Notes under the pieces: generated by a model
The model's database searches: none
What the model was told of the DNA's origin: nothing
What the model saw: only the letters and a program-made list of their open reading frames with translations
Position numbers and translations under genes: made by a program
In this document: one piece after another, positions 9,690-47,476 of the stretch
Layout: each line of letters begins with the position of its first letter
Numbering within the stretch: position 1 is the first letter of the stretch
Assembly (NCBI GenBank): GCA_043803105.1
Contig: JAZDKJ010000006.1
Location: 384,001 to 448,000, forward strand
Source: Candidatus Woesearchaeota archaeon
Lineage (GTDB): Archaea; Nanobdellota; Nanobdellia; Woesearchaeales; JAZDKJ01
DNA: 64,000 bases
Reading direction: 5' to 3'

Positions 9690-9858
9690 GATTCAAACTA
9701 ACTTATCAGGGTATTTAAAAATTGTGTTGTGTTCATGCCTGCAAAAAGCTGCCTTGCCAGTCAGATTGACAGGCTCAGGCAAAAAGCATTAACTTTATAA
9801 ATCACTGGTCGGCTCTGTACAATAATCAAGGAGCAGTACACTTGACCTTACAATCATT

Positions 9859-9931
9859 GGGGCTGCGGGGGAGCTGCGAAGTCAGCTCGCACCTTCGTGG
9901 GACATAAAGTCCCCCTGACATCACAATCAAT
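9859..9931 (+). repeat. copy of tRNA-Pro nt 1-12 plus hairpin cassette in the tRNA leader
   Basis: caatcattggggctgcgggg (9851-9870) repeats caatcaatggggctgtgggg (9924-9943); hairpin GAGCTG-cgaagt-CAGCTC then GCACCTT. Confidence 0.75.
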
Positions 9932-10048
9932 GGGGCTGTGGGGTAGCTTGGTCTAGCCTATCTGGTTTGGGGCAATGCAAAAAACCAGATGACCCCGGTT
10001 CGAAAGTTTTATAAAAGGCTGATTAACTCGAAAATCCGGGCAGCCCCA
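9932..10048 (+). tRNA. tRNA-Pro(UGG) with two introns (37/38: 9972-9983; 59/60: 10005-10034)
   Basis: Acceptor GGGGCTG/CAGCCCC-A; anticodon stem TCTGG/CCAGA with TGG at 9968-9970; T stem CCCGG/CCGGG; 75 nt after intron removal; BHB-like helices TTTG/CAAA and TTCG/CGAA. Confidence 0.92.
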
Positions 10049-10052
10049 CTCA

Positions 10053-10146
10053 TGTTCGTGGTTGGTCTTCCCAATGGGAAGACGCACCCTTTAGGGTGCC
10101 GATGCAGTCAACAGGCATTTCTGTTGATCCGGGCCGCCCCCACTCA
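10053..10146 (+). repeat. three-hairpin cassette followed by a copy of the tRNA-Pro 3' end
   Basis: Hairpins at 10065-10083, 10084-10099 and 10108-10127; atccgggccgcccccactca (10127-10146) repeats atccgggcagccccactca (10034-10052). Confidence 0.75.
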
Positions 10147-10198
10147 GTTTTGTTGGCTAAAAACATGGGAAAACGCTGCACAAAGGGCAATTCGCAAA

Positions 10199-10507
10199 AT
10201 GGGAGAAAAACAATTCGGTTCAATCAAGAGGTTTGGAGCAAGGTACGGTCGTACTGTCAAACATAACCTCGCAAAGATAGAGGAAGGATTAAGGAATTTC
10301 CAGAAGTGCCCGTACTGTTTTGCAGTCAAGGTCAAGAGAGTATCTTCTGGAGTGTGGCATTGCCGCAAGTGCGATGCCAAGTTTACAGGCAAGGCATATA
10401 TTGTTTCAGGCAAGCTAAAACCTATTGTCCTTGCAAAACCTATCGAGGAAGTTGATGAGGAGATGTCTTTAGGGAAAAAGAAGGAAAAGGTTTCTGAGGA
10501 AGAATGA
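10199..10507 (+). CDS. rpl37ae: 50S ribosomal protein L37ae
   Basis: RFGARYG, CPYC...VKRVSSGVWHCRKC..KFTGKAY; start trimmed to MGEKQF. Confidence 0.95.
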   Translation: MGEKQFGSIKRFGARYGRTVKHNLAKIEEGLRNFQKCPYCFAVKVKRVSSGVWHCRKCDAKFTGKAYIVSGKLKPIVLAKPIEEVDEEMSLGKKKEKVSEEE

Positions 10508-10641
10508 CAAAATACAAGTGTTTTAATTGCAATAAAAGGGTGAGCGAGGAGTATGTAGGCAAAAGGGTTAGATGCCCTTATTGCGGAAGCAAGATGCTGT
10601 TTAAGCCTCGCAGCGTGCTGACCAAGGTCAAAGCCCGATAA
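10504..10641 (+). CDS. rpoP: RNA polymerase subunit P (Rpo12)
   Basis: Manual translation MTKYKCFNC...VRCPYCGSKMLFKPR...VKAR*; conserved position after L37ae. Confidence 0.92.
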   Translation: MTKYKCFNCNKRVSEEYVGKRVRCPYCGSKMLFKPRSVLTKVKAR

Positions 10642-10988
10642 TGAAAATTGACAAGGATGTTGAGCAGAAGATTAAGCGCCTTCAGCTCTATGAACAAAAC
10701 ATGCAGGCGCTTGCTTCACAAAAGCAGCAGTTCCAAAACCAGCTTGTTGAGATTGAATCAGCATTGGCTGAGCTGGAAACCGCAGAAGTCTCGTACAAAA
10801 TCATAGCAAATATCATGGTGAAGTCAGAGAAGCCCGCATTGAAGGCTGAGCTGGAGCAGAAAAAGGAGATGCTCGAGCTTCACATCAAGACCCTGGACAA
10901 ACAAGAGTCCAGCATTCGCGACAAGTCAAAGCAGATTCAGCAGGAAGTTCTAGGCACGATCAAAAATGAAGAAGACAAACCCAAGTGA
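10641..10988 (+). CDS. pfdB: prefoldin beta subunit
   Basis: Coiled coil flanking SYKIIANIMVKS; conserved gene context. Confidence 0.9.
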   Translation: MKIDKDVEQKIKRLQLYEQNMQALASQKQQFQNQLVEIESALAELETAEVSYKIIANIMVKSEKPALKAELEQKKEMLELHIKTLDKQESSIRDKSKQIQQEVLGTIKNEEDKPK

Positions 10989-11220
10989 TCTGGAGCTCAT
11001 TTTCTTAGCACTCCAAGAGTTGATTGATGATACAACTGTTCCCAGGAACGTTAAGTCAAAGGTTGAGGCAGTGCAAAAGATTTTGAAGGAAGAATGCGGG
11101 CTGTCCACCCGAGTAAACAAGGCCTTGAACGAGCTGGAGGAGATTGCTAACGACACGAACATGCAGGCTTACACAAGAACCCAGCTCTGGAATGTTGTCA
11201 GCCTTCTTGAAAAGCTTTAG
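10966..11220 (+). CDS. UPF0147 family protein
   Basis: DTTVPRNV, LEEIANDTNM..YTRTQLWNVVSLLE. Confidence 0.9.
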   Translation: MKKTNPSDLELIFLALQELIDDTTVPRNVKSKVEAVQKILKEECGLSTRVNKALNELEEIANDTNMQAYTRTQLWNVVSLLEKL

Positions 11221-11752
11221 ATAATGTAGCGTTCGGAACATAAATCTTATCTCCAGTTTCTGTTTCTATGAGTGTCTCTGTCATTCCTATGTGCTCAAGC
11301 CTTCCGTGCAATCCCTTGAGCCTTAGCCTTTTGCCTTTGGCTGGATATTTCTTCTTGAGTTTAAACCCTGCTACCAGGTTTGGAAAAAAACTTCTTAGTC
11401 CAAGGAATGTTGAGATGATTAAGATTATCAGGAGTGCTGAGGCGCTCAAGAACAATACCGGCCTTGTCAGGCCTAACTGGTTTAATGCTGCTATGATTGC
11501 AATGAAGTAAATGGTTAAGGTGCACAATGTTCCTATGAGAGCATCTGGCGCCACCTTCAGGTGCATTTTCTTCGACAATGTTTTCAGCTCTGCCTCTTTG
11601 AGTATCCTTTGTACAAGCCTTCCCACCACCTTGCCTACTATGATGCCTATAAGTATTATGAGCACAGCAAGGACCATTCGTGCTAAAATGCCCGAGAATA
11701 TTCTTGTGACCCATGGAAACTGGGTTATTGCAAGGAGTTCAGCTTCTGCCAT
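11198..11752 (-). CDS. MscS/CmpX-like membrane protein
   Basis: Transmembrane helices; NLVAGF...GRLEHIGMTETLIET..GDKIYVPNA. Confidence 0.8.
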   Translation of the reverse strand: MAEAELLAITQFPWVTRIFSGILARMVLAVLIILIGIIVGKVVGRLVQRILKEAELKTLSKKMHLKVAPDALIGTLCTLTIYFIAIIAALNQLGLTRPVLFLSASALLIILIISTFLGLRSFFPNLVAGFKLKKKYPAKGKRLRLKGLHGRLEHIGMTETLIETETGDKIYVPNATLSKAFQEG

Positions 11753-11834
11753 GCCTGTTCAAAGCATTTCAAGATTATTTAAAACTTGTGTTGAGACCAA
11801 AACATTTTAATTCTTCGCTGTTAAACTGTGGCTA

Positions 11835-12929
11835 ATGGATGAAATCTCCAGGAATATCCTGCCTCAGAAGATAAAGGAGTTGGAAGACGAGCTCGCCAAG
11901 ACCAAGTACAACAAGCGAACACAGCATGCCATTGGGCTCCTCAAGGCAAAGATTGCCTTATTGAAGGAGAAGCATGAGCAAAAGTCAAAGAAGGGCGGCC
12001 CACTCTATGGCTTTGCTGTAAAGAAGACTGGCGACGCTACCGTAGTTTTTTTCGGCTATCCCTCTGTCGGCAAAAGCACTCTTCTCAATAGGTTGACAAA
12101 CGCAAAGTCAGCTGTTGCAGGTTATGCCTTTACCACAGTATCAGTCATTCCAGGATTGATGGATTACAACAACACCAAGATCCAGCTTCTTGACATCCCG
12201 GGCATTATTGCTGGCGCTGCCACAGGTTCTGGCCGCGGTAGGGAAGTTCTTGCCATTGTCAGGAATGCTGACCTTCTTGTCATTATTGTTGAAGCACTTC
12301 ACACTGAGCAAATCAATATACTAAAGGATGAGTTGTACAGGTCAGGCGTACGGATAAATCAAAAACCTCCTCAAGTGAAGATTACTAATACCATGCAAGG
12401 TGGTATAGTGGTGGATTCTACAATCAAGCTCTCAAAGCTAGGTCGTGATACAATAAGGGATATATTGAGGGAATTCAGGATAATGAACGGACATGTGCTC
12501 ATAAGGGAGGACATCTCTACTGACCAGTTGATTGATGTGCTTACAGCCAATTGCAAATATCTTCCCTGCATCGTTGTGGCAAACAAGAGCGACCTTCTCA
12601 GTCAAAAGCAGCACATCAAGGGTTGCGACCTCATGATTTCTGCAAAGCATGACCCTAGTCTGGAAGAGCTGCGCAAGCTGATTTTTCTAAGACTCGAACT
12701 TATTCGCGTTTTCTGCAAAGAGGCTGGCAAGCCTGCAGATATGCAGGTTCCGCTGATTCTGAAGAAAGGCAGCAATGTTGAGGATGTTTGCCTCAAGCTT
12801 CACAGGGATTTTGTGCCCAGGTTCAAGATTGCCAAGGTCTGGGGGAAGAGCGCTAAGTTCCCTGGCCAGCAGCTTGGTATAAATCATGTTGTGCAAGATA
12901 TGGACATAGTTGAGCTTCATCTGCACTAG
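11835..12929 (+). CDS. DRG family (OBG-class) GTPase with TGS domain
   Basis: GYPSVGKS, YAFTT, DIPGII, NKSD, VWGKSAKFPGQ. Confidence 0.95.
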   Translation: MDEISRNILPQKIKELEDELAKTKYNKRTQHAIGLLKAKIALLKEKHEQKSKKGGPLYGFAVKKTGDATVVFFGYPSVGKSTLLNRLTNAKSAVAGYAFTTVSVIPGLMDYNNTKIQLLDIPGIIAGAATGSGRGREVLAIVRNADLLVIIVEALHTEQINILKDELYRSGVRINQKPPQVKITNTMQGGIVVDSTIKLSKLGRDTIRDILREFRIMNGHVLIREDISTDQLIDVLTANCKYLPCIVVANKSDLLSQKQHIKGCDLMISAKHDPSLEELRKLIFLRLELIRVFCKEAGKPADMQVPLILKKGSNVEDVCLKLHRDFVPRFKIAKVWGKSAKFPGQQLGINHVVQDMDIVELHLH

Positions 12930-12959
12930 CTTTAAATACATCCTGCAAACTGCAAAGAC

Positions 12960-14261
12960 TTGATGAAACCAATAACCATAATTGCATTATTGTGCCTTTT
13001 CCTTGTTGCCTGCTCCGTCCAACAGCCTGTACAATCTCCTACAGCCAAGGACCTTGGAGAAAGGCAAGTTAAGACCACCATTCCTGATAAGCAAACTATT
13101 CCCGAAAAGCAGACCATCGTTGCCCTTCCAAACACAAATTTCTCTCTTAGGCAAATTGAGTCTTTGATTTACTCTCTCTCAGCCGTGGACTATGAGTTCA
13201 GCCAAGACCTTACTGATGAGCCAATCGTTTCAGAACTAAGAAAAAAACAGCAATTCCTCGCAATGTCCGAAAATACAAACAAGTTTTTTGTTGTCCAACA
13301 GCTCAAGCAAGGCAAGCTACAGACACTCTCAGATTTCTATAACTTCGAGAAGAGTCCGGATTGGCAGCTTTGGCGTTATTATATTAATGAGACAAAGTGG
13401 CACTGGGCTTACAAGCCACTCAGCCAGAAAGAACTTGCTAGGTTGCTTCCAGGTTATTCCTATTTGTCTTATACTGCTCCCGACTCTGATTGGATTGATG
13501 TGGATATTTTCGAGCAGCCGGTCATGACAAGCCTTGGCCCGATCCTGGAGTACAGGATGTTCTTGACAAAGTATAACCAGTTTGGTTTTGCCCAGGATGA
13601 GTGGCAGCCTGCAGTGATTTTATATAAGGTTCCGTGCTCAGAATCAACAGTCTTTTACCTGAGGCCAAAAAGAGGCCTTGACTTTGGTTATGCTGTGCAG
13701 CTTAACCAGAAAAAGTCTGATTATCTTCACAACTGGGACAGGGAAATCTTAAAAAAACAGCCATTGATGATAAATTATAGTGAATCAATAATGCGTGCCT
13801 GCGGCTTAAACAGATCATCCTTCACCTCCGCAAATCCATCAACTTATGAGGACCATTTTAGTTTGGTAGTGAACAACAAGGTCTATTTCAAGAAGTTGTT
13901 CAATTTTTCAATGGATGCTAGGGTCTCGCTCAGGGAAAAGCCGCCTTATGATGCTTATCACATTGAAGACCTCAATCTGAGTTTTGTCTATTCAGACAAG
14001 TTCATGAGGATCACCGATTATCATGTGAGCGTGAAGATTTTGATCAATGATTCAGGATGGATTAAGGACTATGCTGAGTACCAGATTGTTGGTGACCCTG
14101 TTCCTTTCGGTAGGCAGGTCCAGAGGAATTTCAGTGTCTTCAAGGACATCACTTTTGGCCCTAACGCAACCATTATACTGATTCCCTATCTTGGCACAGT
14201 GGACACTTTTGAGGCATGGCGCTATTATATTGGTGAGCCTATAGCCAGGAAGATAAGCTGA
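12960..14261 (+). CDS. hypothetical lipoprotein
   Basis: Signal peptide ending LVAC; 433 aa. Confidence 0.7.
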   Translation: MMKPITIIALLCLFLVACSVQQPVQSPTAKDLGERQVKTTIPDKQTIPEKQTIVALPNTNFSLRQIESLIYSLSAVDYEFSQDLTDEPIVSELRKKQQFLAMSENTNKFFVVQQLKQGKLQTLSDFYNFEKSPDWQLWRYYINETKWHWAYKPLSQKELARLLPGYSYLSYTAPDSDWIDVDIFEQPVMTSLGPILEYRMFLTKYNQFGFAQDEWQPAVILYKVPCSESTVFYLRPKRGLDFGYAVQLNQKKSDYLHNWDREILKKQPLMINYSESIMRACGLNRSSFTSANPSTYEDHFSLVVNNKVYFKKLFNFSMDARVSLREKPPYDAYHIEDLNLSFVYSDKFMRITDYHVSVKILINDSGWIKDYAEYQIVGDPVPFGRQVQRNFSVFKDITFGPNATIILIPYLGTVDTFEAWRYYIGEPIARKIS

Positions 14262-14309
14262 CGAAAGCATTAAATACGAACCAAGAAACAAGGTTCAAAG
14301 GTGAGATTT

Positions 14310-14537
14310 ATGGCAAAGAAGAATGAATCAAGCAATGACGAGCAAATCGGTTTTCACAAGGGTGCCCTTTCCACACTCGCAAAGGAGCGTGAGGAGATGG
14401 CAAAGATTCTGTCCATTGTCGAGCAGCTTATGCAGATGCACGTCAAGGCTCTAAAGGAACTTGGTGTTGACCTTGCTGCCCAGGCAAAGGAGTTTGAGGC
14501 AAAGCAGAAATCCAAGAAGATTGATGATATGTTATGA
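14310..14537 (+). CDS. hypothetical protein
   Basis: First gene of an overlapping three-gene run; ATG at 14310. Confidence 0.7.
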   Translation: MAKKNESSNDEQIGFHKGALSTLAKEREEMAKILSIVEQLMQMHVKALKELGVDLAAQAKEFEAKQKSKKIDDML

Positions 14538-14923
14538 AGGTTTCTTTTTCTGCTTTTGGCCATCCCAACATCACTGCAACCCACAAGACCACTTTAGAGA
14601 TAACAAGCGATTCTGAAGTCTCAGCTTCAGGAACGTGCATTATCGGAGTTAGGGCAAAGATTCCTGACCTGAGATGTTTTCTTGACAAGCCCTCGATTAT
14701 CATATTGCTCAAGGTAGCTGGACTGGAGGACAAGATAAGATGTGTGCCGAACCCCTCGTTTCAAAGTGATAAAGAGCTGGTTGTTAGGATGGGAGAATTC
14801 AAGTCACCAAGGACATTTGGGTTAAGGGCTGACAAGGCTTCAAGACACATTGACCGGAGGATTGCGCAATTGCTCAAGGATAGTTCAATGCGCCTTCAAA
14901 TTGAGGTGACTGATGAGGCGTAA
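14534..14923 (+). CDS. DUF371 family protein
   Basis: GHPNITATHKTTLEIT...GTCIIGVRA...RT..LRADKAS. Confidence 0.9.
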   Translation: MKVSFSAFGHPNITATHKTTLEITSDSEVSASGTCIIGVRAKIPDLRCFLDKPSIIILLKVAGLEDKIRCVPNPSFQSDKELVVRMGEFKSPRTFGLRADKASRHIDRRIAQLLKDSSMRLQIEVTDEA

Positions 14924-15371
14924 GCAGCTCAGTAAGGCAGAGATAAAGGAGTTCGCAGATAAGCTCTGTGCCCTATACCCTGGTTATCAGCTTTCAAAAA
15001 AAGACCAGGTCGAGTTGGTTGACGAGAAGATCATTCTTATCAACAGGCAATCCTCTTTCTTCCTGCGTGAAGGCGTTCCTGTTCCAACTCTCAGGCTGCT
15101 TTTGAAGAATCAATTTCTTAAGACCTTAGTGGTTGATATGGGCGCTGTTGGGTTTGTTGCCGAAGGCGCTGATGTGATGCGGCCAGGAATAGTTGGTTTC
15201 GACAATGACATAACTGAAGGCGAGTTTGTTGCAGTCGTTGACTTGCAGAACCGAAAACCGCTTGCTGTTTGCCAGGCTGTTATGTCCTCAGAACAATTGA
15301 AGTCGACCGGCTCGGGCAAGTCGTGCAAGAACCTGCATCATGTAGGGGATGAGATCTGGTCCGTTACTTGA
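14913..15371 (+). CDS. PUA-domain RNA-binding protein (Tma20/MCT-1-like)
   Basis: PTLRLL, VVDMGAV..VAEGADVMRPGI, HHVGDEIW. Confidence 0.92.
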   Translation: MRRKQLSKAEIKEFADKLCALYPGYQLSKKDQVELVDEKIILINRQSSFFLREGVPVPTLRLLLKNQFLKTLVVDMGAVGFVAEGADVMRPGIVGFDNDITEGEFVAVVDLQNRKPLAVCQAVMSSEQLKSTGSGKSCKNLHHVGDEIWSVT

Positions 15372-15807
15372 TGCGTCTTGTCTTTGGCACATAGTTCAAT
15401 ATCCTTCCCTGTCTTGCGCTTCCGCAGCCAAGATAATGTTCCTTATGTTTCACGATCACAAATCCGTCCTGGCATTCCTTTTCTAAGTCAAAGCCTTTCA
15501 GCCAGCTCATTTCTTCCTGTTCATTCACTTCAACAATATTTTTTGTTGCGCCTGGGCCTATGATTTGGCTTCCTTCCATTGACAGCCTAAGCCTTTCGTG
15601 TGTTATCTCTCCGAAATAAAGCCCTACAGAATTGATTCGTAGCGCCTTTAGCTCTATCAACCCAAAATCCCGAGTGGTTAGGAAAATCCTTGACTTGTTG
15701 TTCATCAGGAATACGTACTCAAGTTTTGCCTTGAATCCCCATTGGTCTTCAAGGAGCACAGCTATCTTCTTTATTTCATGGGTGTTTAATATACTAAGGT
15801 TGTCCAT
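15364..15807 (-). CDS. PUA-like protein (RsmF/YebU C-terminal or NIP7-like)
   Basis: SVGLYFGE..RLRLSMEGSQ..., LGCG....ILNYVPKTRRI. Confidence 0.8.
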   Translation of the reverse strand: MDNLSILNTHEIKKIAVLLEDQWGFKAKLEYVFLMNNKSRIFLTTRDFGLIELKALRINSVGLYFGEITHERLRLSMEGSQIIGPGATKNIVEVNEQEEMSWLKGFDLEKECQDGFVIVKHKEHYLGCGSARQGRILNYVPKTRRIK

Positions 15808-15811
15808 AATT

Positions 15812-16012
15812 CTATGAGTTTAGCATTCCATCCATTGTGTCATGTACAACTTCCTTGAAAGTCCTGTACTCGTTAGGGTCTATAGCCTTCTGATAGAGCG
15901 CTTCAAGCACAGCACAACCCACAGACATCCCATATTTAATGCTACCTGCTTCAGGAAGCGCTGCCAGCACAGCCACTGAGTTCACTATTGCTGCTTCAAG
16001 GTTTACATCCAT
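15812..16012 (-). CDS. hypothetical protein
   Basis: 66-aa ORF filling the gap; TATA-like TTTAAATA upstream. Confidence 0.5.
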   Translation of the reverse strand: MDVNLEAAIVNSVAVLAALPEAGSIKYGMSVGCAVLEALYQKAIDPNEYRTFKEVVHDTMDGMLNS

Positions 16013-16098
16013 ACAAACCTTTCTCTCAGTGTGATATTTAAATATTTAGTTTCATTCAAACATAAAAGCTTAAATATCCATTTTAACAGTATATCCTT

Positions 16099-16716
16099 AT
16101 GAAGAAGCTGGTTGCCTTTGCCTTTCTCCTTGTCCTTTTGGCCTGCGTTGTGAAAGCTGCAGGAATCTCAGTCACTTATGCCTATATCGAGCTGAACGTG
16201 ACTAATGAGCCTCCGAGCATTGTCTCTCTATCTGTTGGAGACCCTGTGGTGTACGAGGACTCGGAAATTGTCTGCAACGCCACGGCTTTAGACAGGGAAA
16301 ATAATGATATCAATTATCATTATTCTTGGTCTATAAACAATCAGCCTGTTGCAGAAACCGGCCGCGTGTTTCATACCGGAGCGTTAAAGCCAGGCGATTC
16401 TGTGAGTTGCATTGCTGTTCCTTTTGACATGTTTGCAAACGGCACTTCTGCTGTTGCCTCAACAACAATCCAAGACATGCCTGTCGCAGTGAGGGCAGTT
16501 AAGCAAGGTCTCTCCCTTGTTGGAGTTGACGCAAAAGCACAAGCAATCTCTGGAGCTACACAAAGAGGCCTGCTCGCCACAACCGGTTTTGTTGCTGGAC
16601 AGGTTTCTTCAAGCACTGCCGGCTCTGTTGGTTTGCTCCTTGCCATTGTTGCTTTTCTTGTTTTCCTGAACCTTAACCTTGCCCTAAGGTTGAAAAAGAA
16701 GCTTTCTCGGGGTTAG
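16099..16716 (+). CDS. secreted membrane-anchored protein with Ig-like domain
   Basis: Signal peptide; NEPPSI...C...D.END.I.Y.Y.W..N...GD.V.C...PFD; C-terminal TM. Confidence 0.75.
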   Translation: MKKLVAFAFLLVLLACVVKAAGISVTYAYIELNVTNEPPSIVSLSVGDPVVYEDSEIVCNATALDRENNDINYHYSWSINNQPVAETGRVFHTGALKPGDSVSCIAVPFDMFANGTSAVASTTIQDMPVAVRAVKQGLSLVGVDAKAQAISGATQRGLLATTGFVAGQVSSSTAGSVGLLLAIVAFLVFLNLNLALRLKKKLSRG

Positions 16717-16747
16717 CTTTATAACAACAAGCGCACTGCCAAGATTC

Positions 16748-17095
16748 ATGGGTATCGATAATATTGCAAACGAGATTATGAAATCACACTTTACAGTTAT
16801 TGACCTTGGCAAGGAAACTGATATCTCAAAACTCTGGGAAACACTTCTTATCATAGCTGCTTCTAAAAAACCTGTTTATATCCTCAAAGAAGCAGGCTTT
16901 GAAGGAGCAATTCCAGGCGGCTTGCTTATCAAGCGCATGATTACCTATGAGGGTCCCGAAGACTCGGCATCACATAAAGAAGCTAGCAGGCAGCTCGAGT
17001 CATGGGCAAGGATAGAGACCAATGCAGAACCTATCAGGGAATTGTTTGACCATTTCCCTGCATGCCTGTTGCACAAAAAGCTTATATACCATTAG
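16748..17095 (+). CDS. hypothetical protein
   Basis: 115-aa ORF with upstream TTTATAA. Confidence 0.6.
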   Translation: MGIDNIANEIMKSHFTVIDLGKETDISKLWETLLIIAASKKPVYILKEAGFEGAIPGGLLIKRMITYEGPEDSASHKEASRQLESWARIETNAEPIRELFDHFPACLLHKKLIYH

Positions 17096-17110
17096 GCTTT
17101 TTGTTCTGCC

Positions 17111-17422
17111 ATGGCGATTTCTTACAAGCAAAGATGCATGCGGTGCAAAAAGAATATGGTCATGGTGACTTCAAGGACTTTTTTCCCAGTCTGTTACGAT
17201 TGTGAAAAGAATGATTTGCATGGTCTGGTCAAGAACCCTAAGATGAAAAAGCTCTTTAATATTCCAGAATCCTTCTATGTAGAGAATACTTTCCTGCGCT
17301 CAATAAAGATCAATTACCTGAAGTTTGGCAGCCTCTCAGAAAAGCAGATTGCAAGCTTCAAGAAGACTGTGGAAGAGTTAAAGAAAAAACCCGTAAGCCT
17401 CATACCCCCCAGACAGGGTTAG
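17111..17422 (+). CDS. hypothetical zinc-binding protein
   Basis: CMRC...CYDC. Confidence 0.7.
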   Translation: MAISYKQRCMRCKKNMVMVTSRTFFPVCYDCEKNDLHGLVKNPKMKKLFNIPESFYVENTFLRSIKINYLKFGSLSEKQIASFKKTVEELKKKPVSLIPPRQG

Positions 17423-19163
17423 ATTTTCTCATTATTATGGCTATCTCTTTCAAGACCTCAGTCTCTTCACGGCCAAGAAGCTTCCTGTACTCCTTTAGTT
17501 TTCGGAAATCATCCTCAGGCACCGAGCTGTAAAGTGTGTCTCCTTCTTTTATCTGTCTTCCAACAGTGAGGTGCTCAAGGCTCACCGCAACCTGCTTTCC
17601 CCGCTCAGCTTTCTCAAGGTTTTCCTGCTCTGCTTGTATGCTTTTTATCCTGCTAATCTCCTTGCCTTGCGCGTTCATTACAGGCATTCCTGTTCTTATT
17701 GTCCCTGCCTCCACCTCTACTCCTACTACTGCAGGATTGTTTTGCCTGAAAACATAGCCTTTCATGAGTTTGAATTTTGCCGGCCTGACCACCTTGTCCA
17801 GTTCTCCCAGCTCTTGTTTCTTTGACATCTCCTGTTTCCATGCCTCAAGGTCTTCCAGCAGTTTATAGATTATGTCGTGGACTATCACCTTCACATGGTC
17901 CAGGCACAACCCTGATTCGTCCTTGACATTGAACCCGAGCACCACTGCCATCAGCGGATCTTTTTCATAGTTGCTTTCCGCTTCCATAAGGTCTTTTCTC
18001 GTTATCGGCCCAACCCCTGCCTTTCTTATCTCGACTCCGCCGTCCTTCAGGAGCTTGACCATAGCCTCCATGCTGCCAAGCGTGTCTGCCTTTACTATTA
18101 TTCCTTCCTTGTTTGTTTCAATTAGTGCCTCGCTTATCTCGCGCATTATTTCTCTGCTGGTTTTCTCCAGGTTCTGCTGGCTTGTTGCCCTGATTGGCAT
18201 TCCTGCTATCGCTGTCTCAATGTCCGGTGCAGCAATCTTTACCCCTGTCGCTGCAACTGCTTTTCTGACCTTTGTGTATTTTGCCTTTTTGTCTCGCATC
18301 TCTTCAAGTGGCAATGGTTCAAGAAGAGCCTTAACTTTTGTTATGATGGGTTTCTCTATGCCCCCAATTACTATGATATCATTTACCTTGAGGATCCCAT
18401 CGTATATGATCACATCGATTGTTGTACCAAAACCACGTTCCTCCTTCACCTCGAGGATTGTTCCCTTGGCTGGTCCGCTTGCATCAATTTTTAGGTTGGT
18501 TTCAAGGTATCTTTGAGCTAGGCCTGTTAGCATTACGAGGAGTTCTGGTATGCCCTCTCCTGTTTTTGCAGATACTGGGACGATGATTATTTGTTTTGTA
18601 AAGTCCTCTACTCTGTCATATCTTTCAGAATTAAGGCCGAGCTTGCTTAATTCTCCCAGTATCTGATAGACTCTCTTGTCAAGCTGCTCTTGCACTGAAC
18701 TGCTCTGCTTGCTTATGTTCTCCAGCAAATGCTCTGCCTTATGCTGCCAGCCTGCAATTAAGTCTATCTTGTTCGCAGCGACAATAAATGGTGTCTTGCT
18801 ATGCTTGAGTATCTCTATTGCCTCGACTGTCTGTGGCTTGAATCCCTCGTTGACATCGATAACCACAATTGCGATGTCAGCTAGGCTGCCTCCTCTCTTT
18901 CTTAGGCTTGTGAATGCAGCATGCCCTGGAGTGTCAATGAAAAGAAGGCCTGGTATCGTGAATTTTGTGTTGAGCGCTTCCAGCAATGGGCCGCATATCT
19001 TCTTTATGACTTCAAGCGGTATTATTGAAGCGCCTATTGCCTGTGTTATCCTTCCCGCTTCTGTCTCAACTATGGCAGTGCCCCTGATCTTGTCTAGCAG
19101 GCTTGATTTTCCATGGTCCACATGCCCAAGCACTGTGCATATTGGGCTTCTTATCTCTGGCAT
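17400..19163 (-). CDS. infB: translation initiation factor aIF5B (IF-2)
   Basis: GHVDHGKSS, ITQAIGA, DTPGHAAF, NKID, KADTLGS. Confidence 0.97.
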   Translation of the reverse strand: MPEIRSPICTVLGHVDHGKSSLLDKIRGTAIVETEAGRITQAIGASIIPLEVIKKICGPLLEALNTKFTIPGLLFIDTPGHAAFTSLRKRGGSLADIAIVVIDVNEGFKPQTVEAIEILKHSKTPFIVAANKIDLIAGWQHKAEHLLENISKQSSSVQEQLDKRVYQILGELSKLGLNSERYDRVEDFTKQIIIVPVSAKTGEGIPELLVMLTGLAQRYLETNLKIDASGPAKGTILEVKEERGFGTTIDVIIYDGILKVNDIIVIGGIEKPIITKVKALLEPLPLEEMRDKKAKYTKVRKAVAATGVKIAAPDIETAIAGMPIRATSQQNLEKTSREIMREISEALIETNKEGIIVKADTLGSMEAMVKLLKDGGVEIRKAGVGPITRKDLMEAESNYEKDPLMAVVLGFNVKDESGLCLDHVKVIVHDIIYKLLEDLEAWKQEMSKKQELGELDKVVRPAKFKLMKGYVFRQNNPAVVGVEVEAGTIRTGMPVMNAQGKEISRIKSIQAEQENLEKAERGKQVAVSLEHLTVGRQIKEGDTLYSSVPEDDFRKLKEYRKLLGREETEVLKEIAIIMRKSNPVWGV

Positions 19164-19309
19164 ATTCTCTGCATATTTTGGGCTGTATTTAAAGGTTTTC
19201 AGGATACAAGGAAAGTTAGGATTTCATGTCCTTTTGTAATTTCTTCAGAAGGCAATCCACACCTTGTAATATATTATCTTCTTGAGGTTTTCAATATCGA
19301 TAAATTTTG

Positions 19310-19463
19310 CGCCCGGTCAGGGATTTTCACTTGATGAGATTTGAACTGTCAGAAATTCACTGAATTTCTGAGCATGCTCGGAAACATAGTTTCCGACACC
19401 TGGAGACCTGTGATGGTCAATTGCTTTTCAGGCAACCGCGATACCCGATTACGCTAGCCCGGC
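19310..19463 (-). pseudogene. tRNA-Ser-like gene with GAA anticodon, 59/60 intron and 52-nt T-stem insertion; probably a pseudo-tRNA
   Basis: GCCGGGCTAGCG start; anticodon arm GTTGC-CTGAAAA-GCAAT; long variable arm GACC/GGTC; G73; two acceptor-stem mismatches; BHB-type intron tctcatcaagtgaaaa. Confidence 0.65.
19347..19398. mobile_element. 52-nt twin-hairpin palindromic insertion (MITE/REP-like)
   Basis: TGTC...GACA termini; hairpins tcagaaattca/tgaatttctga and tcggaaac/gtttccga around central gagcatgctc; interrupts the CAGG|G T stem. Confidence 0.6.
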
Positions 19464-19673
19464 CTCGCACATTTCTAAATTGACCTGAACCTTAATATGT
19501 TCAATTGAGAATTTTCCGTAAGTTCTGCGACAAAACCGAGCAAAATCTTATATACCAGAATGCTTACAAACTTTATGACCTGCGATTTAATTACCTGATT
19601 ACGCGAGCCCTTTTTATATAGTATTTTCTGTAGATTTGACCAATGGCTCAAGTAGCCTTGGCCAGAAATAAAA

Positions 19674-19875
19674 TGGGGCTGCTGGGATTTCCATGCTTCT
19701 AGGACGGTCTTTTGGCATCAGCCAAAAGCCTTTTCCCAGGTTTTTGCATATTGCAAAAAGCTGTTTGGACCCAGATTAGGAGGTTTTCCGCTGAAAACCT
19801 TAGGTCAAATGCCCCGAACCTCCAGTGATAGTTTCTCGAAGAGTTTCTCTCTTCTCCAAGTTACACTACAGCCCC
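19674..19875 (-). tRNA. tRNA-Pro(CGG) with three introns (D-loop ~19832-19854; 37/38: 19785-19812; 59/60: 19688-19763)
   Basis: Acceptor GGGGCTG/CAGCCCC-A; anticodon stem GGAGG/CCTCC with CGG; T stem CTGGG/CCCAG; 75 nt after intron removal; BHB helices TTCG/CGGA and TCCA/TGGA. Confidence 0.88.
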
Positions 19876-20076
19876 ATAGGTTGAACTGGAAAGCCACACT
19901 GTTGTATGACCTTCCTATAACTGCTAAACAGCAGGGTGTTAAAAAGGTTGCGATGGAACGTAACGATGTGATATATTAGAATTTTATGTGCCTCTTACCC
20001 TTCAGCAATGTGCAGATTCTGCTAATTAAATTTATATATAAAGAACTGTTTTATTGTTGCAATCGCTTGCATCACT

Positions 20077-21210
20077 ATGGATAACAGAGCAAAATTTGAA
20101 CTTATAACGAGAAATTTAGAAGAAGTACTAACACCTGCAGATTTAATGAAACTCATTGAAAATGATGAGCCTTTAAAGCATTATATTGGTTTTGAAATAA
20201 GTGGTAAGGTGCATCTTGGAACTGGACTTATGTGTATGTCCAAAATTAAAGACTTCATGGATGCAGGTGCGGATGTTTCTGTGTTTCTTGCTGACTGGCA
20301 TAGTTGGATTAATGATAAACTTGGTGGAGACAGAGAAGTTATCAAAAAAATTGCCGTCGGATATTTCAAAGAAGCGATGAAGGCTAGCCTTCTTTGTCTT
20401 GGTGGTAATCCTGAAAAAATAAGATTTGTACTTGGTACAGAACTTTATCACAATAATGACGATTATTGGGCAACCATGATTGATGTAAGTAAAAATACGA
20501 CTCTAGGCAGGATGACTCGGAGCATTACAATCCTTGGAAGAAAAGAAGGGGAGGGAGTTGATTTTGCAAAATTGATCTATCCTGCAATGCAGGTTTCAGA
20601 TATTTTTGTTCAGAAATTGAACATACCTCATGCAGGAATTGATCAAAGGAAAGCGCAAGTTATTGCAAGAGAAGTTGCTTTAAAAATGAAAGTAAGTCAA
20701 ATTACTGATAAAGAGGGTAATAAAATTAAACCCGTTGCCCTGCATCATCATCTGTTACTAGGTCTTGGCAAACCCCCGGTATGGCCTGTTCCTCAAGATA
20801 AATTACAGGATTTATGGTCATCAATGAAGATGAGCAAGTCCAAGCCGGACACTTGTGTTTTTGTTCACGATAGTCCTGATGAAATTAAAAGAAAGATTGC
20901 AAAGGCATTCTGCCCTGAAGGTGAAACTGTGTTCAATCCAGTACTTGATTGGGCTAAATATTTATTGTTCAGAGAGACGACTGATGAACTTATAGTAAAA
21001 AGGCCTGAAAAATTCGGTGGAACTGTTATATATACAACTTACGAAAAACTTGAAAAAGATTTTGCAGACAAAAAAGTTCATCCAATGGACCTTAAAGATT
21101 CAGTTGCTGAAAGTTTAATTAAACTACTTGAACCTGCAAGAATCCATTTTGAAAAACCTGAAATCAAAAAGACGTTGGATCAGCTTAACAAGCTCATAAC
21201 CACAAGGTGA
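20077..21210 (+). CDS. tyrS: tyrosyl-tRNA synthetase (archaeal type)
   Basis: YIGFEISGKVHLG, LADWH, YPAMQVSD, GIDQRK, KMSKS, HPMDLK. Confidence 0.96.
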   Translation: MDNRAKFELITRNLEEVLTPADLMKLIENDEPLKHYIGFEISGKVHLGTGLMCMSKIKDFMDAGADVSVFLADWHSWINDKLGGDREVIKKIAVGYFKEAMKASLLCLGGNPEKIRFVLGTELYHNNDDYWATMIDVSKNTTLGRMTRSITILGRKEGEGVDFAKLIYPAMQVSDIFVQKLNIPHAGIDQRKAQVIAREVALKMKVSQITDKEGNKIKPVALHHHLLLGLGKPPVWPVPQDKLQDLWSSMKMSKSKPDTCVFVHDSPDEIKRKIAKAFCPEGETVFNPVLDWAKYLLFRETTDELIVKRPEKFGGTVIYTTYEKLEKDFADKKVHPMDLKDSVAESLIKLLEPARIHFEKPEIKKTLDQLNKLITTR

Positions 21211-21296
21211 TTTTATTCCTTTTTGTATGTTTATTCTAGATAGTTAATATTAGAATACAAAATTTCAGGATTAGCCTAAAATGTTTTATGCTTCTT

Positions 21297-21404
21297 TTCG
21301 AATTCCGGTCGGACGCATTCTGGTTTCATCCTCAAGCGTAAGTGATAGTTGCTTCAGGCAACCGAGCGAACTGGTTGGCGCTGGCCAAGTTACACTACAG
21401 CCCC
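21297..21404 (-). pseudogene. 3'-truncated tRNA-Pro(GGG)-derived pseudogene, anticodon now GAG
   Basis: First 20 nt identical to tRNA-Pro(CGG); D-loop insert; TACGC-TTGAGG-[12 nt]-T-GCGTC; CGGAA-TTCGAA; no CAGCCCCA 3' strand. Confidence 0.65.
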
Positions 21405-21551
21405 GTTGATTGTTATTGTTTCGCGAAGCTCACAAGAAACCTGATAGTTTCTTGGGAGTCCCAAAAAACTTCAAGTTTTTTGTGACGAAAGGCGACTGAA
21501 AGGAGTGTAAAGGTGCCAGCTGACTTCTCAGCTGAGTAGCACTACAGCCCC
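21405..21551 (-). repeat. copy of tRNA nt 1-12 plus hairpin cassette, homologous to 9859-9931
   Basis: GGGGCTGTAGTG at 21540-21551 and 21393-21404; CAGCTG-agaagt-CAGCTG-GCACCTT; ends ACAATCAAC; contains a twin-hairpin palindrome at 21430-21485. Confidence 0.75.
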
Positions 21552-27771: not shown

Positions 27772-28725
27772 GTGTCTGATAAACTGTTGCTGATTGGTAT
27801 GGGTTCGCCTAGTGATTTGAAGCATTTTGAAAAGCCTTATGCAAGCCTTGACGGCACCATCCCGGAATATCTCTTAAAAAAGGGTGTGAGACTATATTTG
27901 AGCCCTGGCACAGGAAAGCCTCTTGTTACCTCAATACATCGCACCACTGATACAGCAATGAAATTTGCAGATTCTCTTGATAGCTTGGTTGCTATAGAAG
28001 GAAGAAATGACAGGTTTGTTGCCTTATTGTTTGGCGGGCTTGCTTTTCATCTTGGTGGGGCTTTTGCTGGAAAGAATCCTGCAATACCGACGATTGTAGC
28101 TGCGATGGATGAGCATGCCTTCATGAGCGCCTATGCTATGCCTAAAGGAACTCCGGTTGGATTGGTTGGAGTCAACCAGCTTGACAAGGCTGTGATGATG
28201 GCAACTAAGATTCTTGACTATAACGATTCTAACCGAGCATGGATCATACACCATCATTTCACCAATCCTCCATCGACTGATAGGGAGCATCTCGTAAAGT
28301 CTTCATATGATGCTGCCACTCAGCTTCTGCAAAAGTGCAATGTTTTGTCTTGGGCAGTTGAATTTATTTTTGTCGCGCAGAAGAAATATAAAGGTGTTTC
28401 ATTAAGCCTGCCAGCGCTGCCACAAACCGCAATAGAAATGGACAAGAGGTTAATTTTGGGTTCTGTTTCGTTTGTCAATCCTGCTGCGTTAAGTCCTTGC
28501 ACCACAGGTCAGTATCAGACCCTCATGGATGTTGCTGGTCAGCTCAAGAACTCTTTGCTGGTCCATGACCCTTACAACGCAGCCCTTTTTACAATCCAGG
28601 TTATCGCAAACAAGTATCCAGACTTACGTCTTGGGCTTGACAGGATAAAGGAAGAATCGAGGCTGCCGACTGCGAAGGGTGGGTATTCTCAGTTTTTGCC
28701 AATAAAAAAGGATGATTTCAAGTGA
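27772..28725 (+). CDS. purE: double-length PurE-like AIR carboxylase/mutase
   Basis: MGSPSD, SIHRT, GLAFHLGG, MPKGTPVG; second degenerate domain ending NAALFTIQVIA. Confidence 0.8.
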   Translation: MSDKLLLIGMGSPSDLKHFEKPYASLDGTIPEYLLKKGVRLYLSPGTGKPLVTSIHRTTDTAMKFADSLDSLVAIEGRNDRFVALLFGGLAFHLGGAFAGKNPAIPTIVAAMDEHAFMSAYAMPKGTPVGLVGVNQLDKAVMMATKILDYNDSNRAWIIHHHFTNPPSTDREHLVKSSYDAATQLLQKCNVLSWAVEFIFVAQKKYKGVSLSLPALPQTAIEMDKRLILGSVSFVNPAALSPCTTGQYQTLMDVAGQLKNSLLVHDPYNAALFTIQVIANKYPDLRLGLDRIKEESRLPTAKGGYSQFLPIKKDDFK

Positions 28726-46501: not shown

Positions 46502-47476
46502 TTACCTCCAATTCACTTCAACATCATCAGTTCTCTGGTAGGGCTTGATGTCAAGCTTATTGCCAGTTGCCTCTTTCTGCTGCAATATTCCCTGCCAGGC
46601 TATTTGCACTCCGTTGTCAACAAGGAATTGGTTTTCCGGAACAAAGCACTTAGCTCCTCGCTCAAGGCACATCTTTCTGCACATCTCTTGAAGCCTTTTG
46701 TTGCATGCAACCCCTCCGCCAAGCAGGAGCTCTTTCTTCTCGCAGTGTGCCATTGCCCGCTCAGCCACCTCGACAAGCATTGCAAACACTGTCTCTTGTG
46801 CCGAATACGCCAGGTCTTCATTAGAAAACTTGCCGATTTTTTGTTTTAGGTTTGTGAGTATTCCTCCCACAGAAATGTCCATTCCCTTGACAACATAGGG
46901 AAGCTCAATGTACTGTTTTCCTTTACTAGCGAGTTCAGCAATCTTCGGCCCTCCTGGAAAACCTATTCCAAGCTCTCTGCCGAATGCATCAAGAAAGTTT
47001 CCCACTCCATTGTCCAGCGTTTCCCCAAATATCCTGTACTTGCCGCCTTCATACGCGATTACCTGAGTATTGGCTCCTGAAACGTAAAGGAGCACAGGGT
47101 CTTTTGCTGGGGTGACAAGCCTTCCTATTTCAAGGTGCGATATGCAGTGGTTCACACCAACAAGGCTTATCTTGTTCCGTCTGCAAAAATCTGTTGCTTT
47201 CTCTAGCCCAACAACAAGGCATGGCGCAAGCCCTGGCCCCTGAGAAAAGCTCACCAGCCCAATTTGATGCTCTTGCAGGCCTGCTTTTGCTAAGGCTGAA
47301 TTTATTACCTGGTCTGCGACCTTCAAGTGATGTTCTTTTGCCGCAGACGGGTGTATCCCTCCGTGAGTGGTTGTGTAGCTGTCTTTTTCATTAGCGAGTA
47401 TTTTTCCCTCGTTTGTCACTATACCTACACCAAATGTGTGTGCAGTGCTTTCTATGCCCAAACATATCATAATCAT
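46502..47476 (-). CDS. kae1: tRNA N6-threonylcarbamoyltransferase Kae1
   Basis: LGIESTAHTFG, SQGPG, VNHCISHLEIG, SGANTQ, GETLD, GGVACN, DNG. Confidence 0.96.
   Translation of the reverse strand: MIMICLGIESTAHTFGVGIVTNEGKILANEKDSYTTTHGGIHPSAAKEHHLKVADQVINSALAKAGLQEHQIGLVSFSQGPGLAPCLVVGLEKATDFCRRNKISLVGVNHCISHLEIGRLVTPAKDPVLLYVSGANTQVIAYEGGKYRIFGETLDNGVGNFLDAFGRELGIGFPGGPKIAELASKGKQYIELPYVVKGMDISVGGILTNLKQKIGKFSNEDLAYSAQETVFAMLVEVAERAMAHCEKKELLLGGGVACNKRLQEMCRKMCLERGAKCFVPENQFLVDNGVQIAWQGILQQKEATGNKLDIKPYQRTDDVEVNWR

Follow-up and report, generated by a model that had tools for sequence, protein, structure and literature searches.

Short non-coding cassettes built around a hairpin lie beside two loci related to proline tRNA genes in a stretch of 64,000 nt (the window) from Candidatus Woesearchaeota archaeon (GCA_043803105.1, contig JAZDKJ010000006.1, positions 384,001 to 448,000 of the forward strand). 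The genome of the window, G000, is a 1.56-Mb, 96%-complete assembly in 13 contigs, and was compared with genomes of its order (a set of 151, or 150 without the unpublished G132); G001, a 240-contig draft, belongs to the same genus. A preliminary description of the window had claimed the same hairpin cassette at the 5' ends of two tRNA-Pro genes, each with a duplicate of that gene's first 12 nt. The cassettes and 12-nt duplications are all present as described, and shuffling excludes chance: with at most one mismatch, GGGGCTGTGGGG (locus A) occurs twice in the window against 0.18 expected, and GGGGCTGTAGTG (locus B) three times against 0.13, counts that were reached in 0 of 100 shuffles in both cases. 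Locus A comprises the following features.

9850-9870 (+): outer pseudo-copy, leader ACAATCATT followed by GGGGCTGCGGGG (9859-9870), read from the sequence
9871-9922 (+): 5' cassette of 52 nt, two hairpins and a tail (covariance model R1, 43.6 bits)
9871-9888 (+): hairpin 1, GAGCTG-CGAAGT-CAGCTC
9889-9897 (+): spacer GCACCTTCG, followed by hairpin 2 (GGGAC-ATAAA-GTCCC) and the tail
9923-9931 (+): inner leader ACAATCAAT
9932-10048 (+): tRNA-Pro(UGG) gene, first 12 nt GGGGCTGTGGGG (9932-9943), identified from orthologues and ARAGORN
~9971-9982 and ~10003-10033 (+): introns of tRNA-Pro(UGG), in the anticodon loop and in the T-loop (59/60)
10034-10052 (+): own 3' end of tRNA-Pro(UGG), ATCCGGGCAGCCCCACTCA
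10053-10126 (-): 3' cassette of 74 nt, a divergent family member by eye, under the model threshold
10127-10146 (+): outer pseudo-copy of the tRNA-Pro(UGG) 3' end, ATCCGGGCCGCCCCCACTCA

Locus A is a tRNA-Pro(UGG) gene with two introns, which ARAGORN calls as tRNA-Pro tgg only after in-script removal of the introns. The duplication extends beyond the 12-mer that had been described: the outer copy matches positions -9 to +12 of the gene at 19 of 21 nt, the leader being duplicated too (ACAATCATT / ACAATCAAT), and a second cassette with a copy of the 3' end follows the gene. This 3' cassette lies on the minus strand and repeats the layout of the 5' one, with a hairpin (CAACAG-AAATGC-CTGTTG), the spacer ACTGCATCG, a second hairpin (GCACCC-TAAA-GGGTGC) and a third. 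Rfam gave no match at gathering score in the window and, at E-values up to 10, chance-level matches only around both loci; the best, HgcC on the 3' cassette (E=0.046), was judged to be chance. A promoter within the cassette was considered, the ATAAA loop of locus A being ~27 nt upstream of +1, and dropped because other loci do not keep this spacing. The corresponding features of locus B and its surroundings are these.

21540-21551 (-): outer copy GGGGCTGTAGTG
21405-21539 (-): cassette with filler CTACT, hairpin 1, GCACCTT and more hairpins, ending in ...ACAATCAAC (43.3 bits)
21534-21517 (-): hairpin 1, CAGCTG-AGAAGT-CAGCTG
21404-21393 (-): inner copy GGGGCTGTAGTG
21296-21404 (-): truncated Pro-like tRNA fragment (pseudogene or relic), with no 3' end after it
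19674-19875 (-): complete tRNA-Pro(CGG) with D-loop, anticodon-loop and T-loop introns, carrying the third copy of the locus B 12-mer

Of the two supposed tRNA-Pro genes, then, the one at locus A is real, and locus B is a truncated fragment with a complete tRNA-Pro(CGG) elsewhere. The fragment holds the 5' acceptor strand, a D-arm with an insert, the anticodon arm (loop TTGAGGA, one mismatch in the stem) and the 5' half of the T-arm. An alignment of 121 nt with the tRNA-Pro(GGG) gene on contig C7 shows 76% identity. The complete tRNA-Pro(CGG) lies ~1.5 kb downstream of the fragment on the same strand, beyond a Trp/Tyr-tRNA synthetase gene, and its orthologue in G001 is intact and contiguous and has no 5' cassette. 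The synthetase neighbour had suggested a split tRNA, a reading rejected because of the intact tRNA-Pro(CGG) at 19875-19674; the fragment has no complementary partner, its closest relative being tRNA-Pro(GGG). The synthetase gene occupies 20077-21210 (+), and a 94% identical gene in G001 stands on another contig than its tRNA-Pro(CGG). Both the fragment (21341-21350, -) and tRNA-Pro(CGG) (19841-19850, -) contain the 10-nt sequence AACTATCACT, at tRNA positions ~17-26. Spliced by the 59/60 rule, the T-loop of tRNA-Pro(CGG) would read TCCAAAT, with C at position 55, against TTCAAAT in G001.

ARAGORN found no tRNA genes in the 64,000-nt window and, with introns allowed, only 9 in the whole of G000, where the Rfam tRNA model gave 6 above cut-off. 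With so few found in a 96%-complete genome, Woesearchaeota tRNA sets are evidently badly under-annotated, and pseudo-ends such as those described here could mislead tRNA annotation further. An ARAGORN tRNA-Pro tgg call at C6:92591-92668 looks like a false positive.

The hairpin module as a repeat family

As the preliminary description had supposed, the cassettes belong to a repeated element, one not confined to two loci. Its core of ~58 nt consists of a 6-bp hairpin with an NRAAGU loop, then GCACCUUCG, then a second hairpin; the consensus is SAGCTG-NRAAGT-CAGCTS-GCACCTTCG-hairpin 2, and relatives carry a unit of ~58 nt with two hairpins (CAGCTGAAAAGTCAGCTG-GCACCTTCG-GTGGGTTT...AAGCCCAC). The motif first noticed matches 7 times in G000 (at most 3 mismatches), nhmmer finds 8 copies (E<0.001), and the covariance model R1, built from 15 copies of the module, finds 9. 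Across these 15 copies hairpin 1 is paired in 90 of 90 cells, against 11-46% of cells in slid controls, with two-sided changes at three of its six pairs and no G.U in any cell. The loops (NRAAGU, AUAAA) and the spacer are conserved among copies. The canonical form of hairpin 2 (GTGGGTTT...AAGCCCAC), read by eye after an automated search had given spurious stems, contains a conserved U.G that is workable on one strand only.

The cassettes, 52-135 nt long, have no coding capacity and hold no gene remnant. The bases preceding hairpin 1 vary between copies and define no conserved target tetranucleotide, and no 3' tail is common to the copies. Terminal inverted repeats (TIRs), which mark one type of miniature inverted-repeat transposable element (MITE), were not found: 0-8 of 14 terminal positions match in 13 cassettes.

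Within the order the module is present in 21 of 151 genomes (20 of 150 without G132), scattered across families, several of which contain 45-bit matches. The exact pattern was found in 35 stretches among 185,579 species genomes, of which 29 are titled Woesearchaeota or Nanoarchaeota, 5 'uncultured Methanosarcinales' and 1 Omnitrophota. It had no match in viral contigs, and a reversed-pattern control gave no match in 31 of 31 genomes. CP070655.1, titled Candidatus Omnitrophota bacterium, contains a single exact match, located at a tRNA 3' end and flanked by a 12-nt duplication; the explanation is either mis-binning or mislabelling of archaeal sequence, or transfer. JACQXV01, a metagenome-assembled genome of a groundwater Woesearchaeota (loci L074-L108), has ~19 exact matches, many at contig ends. 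Most of these lie within a 140-250-nt repeat with inverted ends (GTATTTGTTTAGC...GCTAAACAAATAC) and at least 12 copies, which looks like an ordinary MITE with a captured module.

Two further modules were recognised in G000. Module M (TTTTCCCAGGTTTTT-hairpin-AAAAAGCTG) has 10 copies there and a single copy in 1 of 30 relatives, and a third module (CTCACAGAAC-NNN-GTTCTGTRGTC) precedes three tRNAs. At three copies of the hairpin module (C10:15722-15748, minus strand, in G000; L052 in G104; L071 in G009) the module follows a TATA-like box by 8-11 nt and has no flanking duplication; judging from this spacing, transcription there would start within hairpin 1.

Flanking duplications, polarity and intron use

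At 5' ends in G000 the module lies upstream of tRNA-Pro(UGG), the locus B fragment, tRNA-Tyr, tRNA-Met(CAT), an unidentified RNA on contig C12 and the tRNA at C6:316742, and in every case a copy of 12-20 nt of that gene's start comes before the module (17/17 at C6:316742, 18/20 at Tyr). At a 3' end, an inverted module downstream of tRNA-Val is followed by a copy of that gene's 3' end, and divergent inverted copies were recognised by eye at tRNA-Phe, the tRNA at C8:7640 and locus A. The copies at Phe 3', locus A 3', C8:7640 and Gln score under the model threshold. The whole of G000 was also scanned for direct repeats (at least 11 nt long, 35-260 nt apart), which were then judged by eye; the resulting list, made without validated tRNA annotation, contains ~19 terminal duplications at ~16 tRNA-like genes (for example Phe 20/20, and Ala 28/28 plus 15/15). 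By our own arithmetic, about one exact 14-mer pair at this spacing is expected by chance per genome. Some sites are compound: the 3' end of tRNA-Ala is present three times (28 and 15 nt), tRNA-Arg has a cassette at either end, and genome G009 has an array of four gene-end copies.

In relatives, a repeat was scored when a direct repeat of at least 9 nt had its first copy ending 0-19 nt before hairpin 1. Such repeats flank 20 of 30 module loci in a first set, which comprises the best-scoring loci and is not a random sample, and 13 of 31 in a second; some assemblies are common to both sets. ARAGORN places a tRNA downstream of the element at 15 of the 16 relative loci with tRNA-end duplications. 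The tRNA stands at the inner copy in 14 of these 15, on the element strand in 4 (5' ends) and on the complementary strand in 10 (3' ends); at the other, L053, it lies beyond an array of copies. About a dozen isotypes are represented. The terminal copies in G000 comprise 6 direct 5' and 4 inverted 3' ones (7 of the 10 pass the model, 3 by eye), and at all 15 relative loci and all 10 copies in G000 the element, read in its own orientation, precedes the gene. One end of the cassette, at hairpin 1, abuts the outer copy, and the other abuts the inner copy, which continues into the intact gene. At two loci, L045 and L069, hairpin 1 is separated from the outer copy by a filler of 4-5 nt (CCAC / CCCAC) identical to the terminal nucleotides of the canonical element (...GCCCAC), suggestive of a circular or tandem form as the source of the inserted DNA.

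The duplications are partial copies of a tRNA end, as are the attachment (att) sites of integrative elements, and, as had been proposed, they are specific to each locus and regenerate the gene end. From one tRNA species to another (at least 15), the repeats that accompany the same module differ in sequence and length. Insertion after tRNA position 12, the site put forward in the preliminary description, is not the rule: breakpoints in the D-arm and D-loop range from 7/8 to 20/21, and at tRNA 3' ends they fall, on the opposite strand, in the T-arm and T-loop. The duplicated length is 11-45 nt at tRNA ends, and the values seen (11, 12, 13, 14, 15, 17, 18, 20, 21, 23, 27, 28, 32, 35, 40+ and 126 nt) differ from the fixed-length target-site duplications of MITEs. 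The longest belongs to a non-tRNA case, a membrane-protein gene with a 126-nt duplication of its 3' region, the two copies being 86% identical. A structured RNA gene without an Rfam match (contig C5, ~47015-47375, minus strand, in G000), which follows a TATA box and has the two ends GGGTTGGG...CCCAACC, contains two inserts (49 and 46 nt), each lying between perfect direct repeats (16 and 19 nt).

Where the copies differ, it is the outer one that is degenerate. Locus A has C8 in place of the near-universal U8 of the gene, the Tyr outer copy has lost G18 and has G.U at 4:69, and that of C12b has A3 opposite C70. A TATA box stands upstream of the outer copy at Tyr and at C6:316742.

Empty sites are found in other genomes, as the preliminary description had led us to look for. 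At the syntenic tRNA-Pro/rpl37ae locus, cassette and duplicate are present in 0 of 11 other genomes, including G001; these orthologues have a TATA-like box ~25 nt before +1, and in G001 rpl37ae comes directly after the tRNA. Between the two congeneric genomes, copies have been gained and lost, with polymorphism in both directions:

tRNA-Pro(UGG), 5' and 3' sites: filled in G000, empty in G001
tRNA-Lys, 5' site: empty in G000, filled in G001 with a 13-nt duplication
tRNA-Pro(CGG), 3' site: empty in G000, filled in G001 with a 13-nt duplication and a 68-nt cassette

The module also forms the 5' part of true introns spliced through a bulge-helix-bulge (BHB), the structure cut by the splicing endonuclease. 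Such copies occur in T-loop introns at 59/60 of tRNA-His and tRNA-Gln in G000, in two T-loop introns of genome G018, and in the canonical 37/38 intron of tRNA-Gly in genome G070. Hairpin 1 starts 0-1 nt past the 5' splice site in all 4 of these 5 introns in which its start could be placed, which leave aside one T-loop intron of G018. In the His and Gln T-loops a relaxed BHB was recognised by hand (H = 54-57, H' = CGAA/TGAA, bulge AAT/AGT), and removal of the copy restores a functional RNA. The terminal cassettes do not lie inside a mature RNA, the inner copy alone being a complete tRNA. A strict 3-4-3 BHB scan found no motif joining an outer copy to its gene in register; the scan is noisy and too strict, and missed the relaxed T-loop motifs as well.

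Introns at 59/60 are common at tRNA-Pro across the order, and in G000 module M is found inside four T-loop introns as well as inside the 16S rRNA gene. In the T-loop intron of tRNA-Pro(CGG) it takes the form CAGCTTTTT-hairpin-AAAAACCTGGGAAAAGG-hairpin and includes 19732-19762. The 16S rRNA gene (contig C8, ~150800-151000) is split in the 785-806 region (GGATTAGATACCC...GTAGTCC) by an M-bearing insert bounded by CAGCTTTTT ... AAAAAGCTG.

Origin of the cassettes

We hold, with moderate confidence, that this repeat family, with its duplications, its polarity, its decaying outer copies, its empty sites and its use in introns, is a non-autonomous, DNA-level insertion family of the Woesearchaeales whose target duplication regenerates the gene end. 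We infer that insertion and duplication would be one event, taking place on DNA, and that the enzyme involved would be supplied in trans and not encoded by the element. Insertion would occur within the first arm of the tRNA gene reached from outside (the D-arm, or the T-arm on the other strand), and would be coupled to duplication of the stretch from the break to the gene boundary. This could proceed by fill-in of a long staggered break, or by a nascent strand that enters the gene, switches template onto a copy of the module and primes again at the gene boundary. The tRNA would survive because the duplication leaves an intact gene end. The extra leader or trailer would then be trimmed by ordinary RNase P and 3' processing, and copies in loops able to form a BHB could persist as introns. 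RNase P RNA (117.5 bits) and EndA (C4:37141-37398) are present, so a long leader needs no special processing.

More tentatively, the cassettes may be fresh footprints of BHB-intron gain, left by an enzyme-less, host-dependent mini-element copied inward from outside into the first arm, with the target duplicated. A duplication reaching the gene boundary would then give a leader or trailer cassette, and a loop able to form a BHB would give an intron. If true, this would define a new class of mobile element, polar, with long and variable target duplications and with neither inverted repeats nor a transposase of its own, and would show for the first time a direct route by which archaeal tRNA introns arrive.

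Several observations weigh against an insertion family. Its duplications are far more variable in length than those of any known transposase, it lacks terminal inverted repeats, and in G000 the right-hand end of the cassette is not sharp, extra modules being appended. No duplication accompanies 10 of the 30 and 18 of the 31 relative loci, the 30 having been chosen as best-scoring; some of these copies are introns, some lie within a larger TIR-type repeat, and some are unexplained. Repeat identity does not date the events, because gene conversion between near repeats could keep the copies alike. No mobilising enzyme is linked to the module either. Integrase, TnpA and reverse transcriptase genes had been named as possible companions; integrases do occur in G000, whereas RVT_1 (4 of 21 module-positive against 30 of 130 module-negative genomes) and Y1_Tnp (6 of 21 against 50 of 130) are not in excess, and the latter figures give no link to the IS200/IS605 type. 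RVT_1 was not found in G000, Cas1 was found in 0 of 5 genomes, and a search of G000, G008 and G009 for the TnpB zinc ribbon was negative, IscB not having been searched for.

The closest rival holds that the duplications are by-products of replication or repair (template switching, flaps or break-induced replication) and that the module is only a favoured filler template. It overlaps with an insertion family, from which it differs mainly in whether the module is 'selfish'. The variable duplication length (11-126 nt), the absence of an enzyme co-occurring with the module and the nested structures (three tRNA 5' copies over 1.7 kb at locus B, three 3' ends at tRNA-Ala, four copies in G009) agree with this explanation. 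The polarity, too, would fit nascent strands that run into a heavily transcribed gene from one side or the other, and the likeness of hairpin 1 to a D-arm (CAGCTG vs TCAGCTGG in tRNA-Lys of G001) could supply microhomology. We nevertheless regard it as unlikely: in most copies the left junction coincides exactly with the base of hairpin 1, and a 58-nt unit that is near-identical across distant families points to transfer or strong selection, not to random filler.

Each of the three remaining explanations fails at least one tested point: the cassettes as integrase scars, as functional RNA (leader or guide), or as products of incomplete intron loss. That the cassettes are scars or miniature derivatives of tyrosine-integrase elements, as a remnant between att sites or moved in trans, appears rather unlikely, although G000 does encode three integrases of ~430-450 amino acids, plus a XerA-like one. 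One of the three, of 429 amino acids, lies next to a Ser/Leu-like tRNA at whose 3' end a ~36-kb element is integrated (C10, 28583-65640). The 3' end of this tRNA, CAGCCTCGGCGTATTAC, recurs 36 kb and 37 kb away, a classical integration with accretion; the att repeat CAGCCTCGGCGTAT(TAC) lies at 28721, 64631 and 65627. The arrays of three and four end copies (Ala; G009) resemble tandem accretion of this kind, and an arrangement of tRNA fragment, 1.8-kb recombinase element and tRNA is described by Sugahara et al. 2012 (PMC3293823). No hairpin module, however, is present at the ends of the 36-kb element, and the cassettes are 52-135 nt long with no gene or integrase remnant. Tyrosine recombinases require a fixed core common to their sites, and such an enzyme cannot account for the module because the repeat differs in each tRNA: one 58-nt unit accompanies varied repeats across at least 15 tRNA species. 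Introns, too, start with the module, and independent deletions would not leave two hairpins flush with the outer repeat each time. The same C10 tRNA has in addition a 14-nt 5' duplication with a 57-nt cassette.

We consider it improbable that the cassette is a functional precursor RNA, whether a structured leader with a decoy 5' strand, the alternative raised in the preliminary description, or a guide-like RNA. From the TATA box upstream of the outer copy (Tyr, C6:316742) the cassette is predicted to be co-transcribed, the conserved loops and spacer are as expected of a protein-binding RNA, and the U.G of canonical hairpin 2 works on one strand only; a variable 5' segment on a constant scaffold also recalls guide RNAs. 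Yet the structured leader is contradicted because the cassette is absent at the orthologous tRNA-Pro in 11 of 11 other genomes and inverted at 3' ends, where it could not act within the tRNA transcript. Outer copies decay at tRNA-critical positions, the absence of G.U from hairpin 1 (90 cells) is as compatible with DNA or a strict protein site as with RNA, and the search for TnpB in the three genomes named above was negative (IscB lay outside that search).

Incomplete intron loss, in which an old 5' exon and D-arm intron are stranded by a processed tRNA copy recombined downstream, would account for the homology of the cassette to real introns and for breakpoints at known non-canonical intron positions (12/13, 20/21, 59/60), but is highly improbable: it leaves the inverted 3' cassettes, the duplicated leader and trailer nucleotides and the protein-gene case unexplained, requires reverse transcription when RVT_1 was not found in G000, and conflicts with the simple intron-less D-arms of these tRNAs in relatives.

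Comparison with known systems

We found nothing describing this layout among work on archaeal, DPANN and Woesearchaeota tRNA introns, the supplements of which may hold intron catalogues. Four archaeal introns, none from DPANN, are treated in the available part of Rogers & Bendich 2025, and the passages seen of a 2026 Nanobdellota preprint (208 complete genomes) are silent on such a layout. A 2026 preprint on Asgard tRNA genes tested copying, mobile elements and reverse transcription, and states that the intron route "remains open". Here, one sequence family is found in three states, as an intron, as a recent insertion with target duplication beside a gene, and as an empty site in a congener, and the question of intron arrival is therefore testable in a defined lineage.

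Like MITEs and the REP/PATE elements, the cassettes are small, multi-copy, non-autonomous and rich in hairpins; unlike them, they have no TIRs, no fixed short duplication, no target tetranucleotide and no link to a Y1 transposase. Retroposition of the kind seen in short interspersed elements (SINEs), which is target-primed, and replication-based duplication-insertions both produce variable, sometimes long flanking duplications with one sharp and one looser end. The cassette duplications are similar in all these respects, but the element is only 58 nt long and has no A-tail, and RVT_1 is neither found in G000 nor enriched in module-bearing genomes, in contrast to what a SINE-like retroposon would suggest.

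An archaeal precedent is Caldiarchaeum subterraneum, where a tRNA fragment plus an inserted element has been linked to intron gain by Sugahara et al. 2012 (PMC3293823). Both cases share a partial tRNA 5' copy upstream of an intact gene with foreign DNA in between. The Caldiarchaeum and integrase inserts are at least 1.8 kb long and encode a recombinase, whereas the cassettes are non-coding, measure 52-135 nt, occur at many tRNAs and are also found inverted at 3' ends.

A further likeness is to the recurrent 'transposing' BHB intron families that Sugahara (2008) and Fujishima (2010) reportedly described in tRNA genes of Thermoproteales. There, as here, related short non-coding sequences occupy different tRNAs and positions within a genome and are spliced via a BHB. 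To our knowledge, no mobilising enzyme is known for the Thermoproteales families. Long variable duplications and a polarity like those of the cassettes are not reported for these families in the parts of that literature we have seen. Unlike the Thermoproteales introns, the Woesearchaeales module also stands outside the mature tRNA at both gene ends, with long target duplications, a fixed polarity and presence or absence between congeners.

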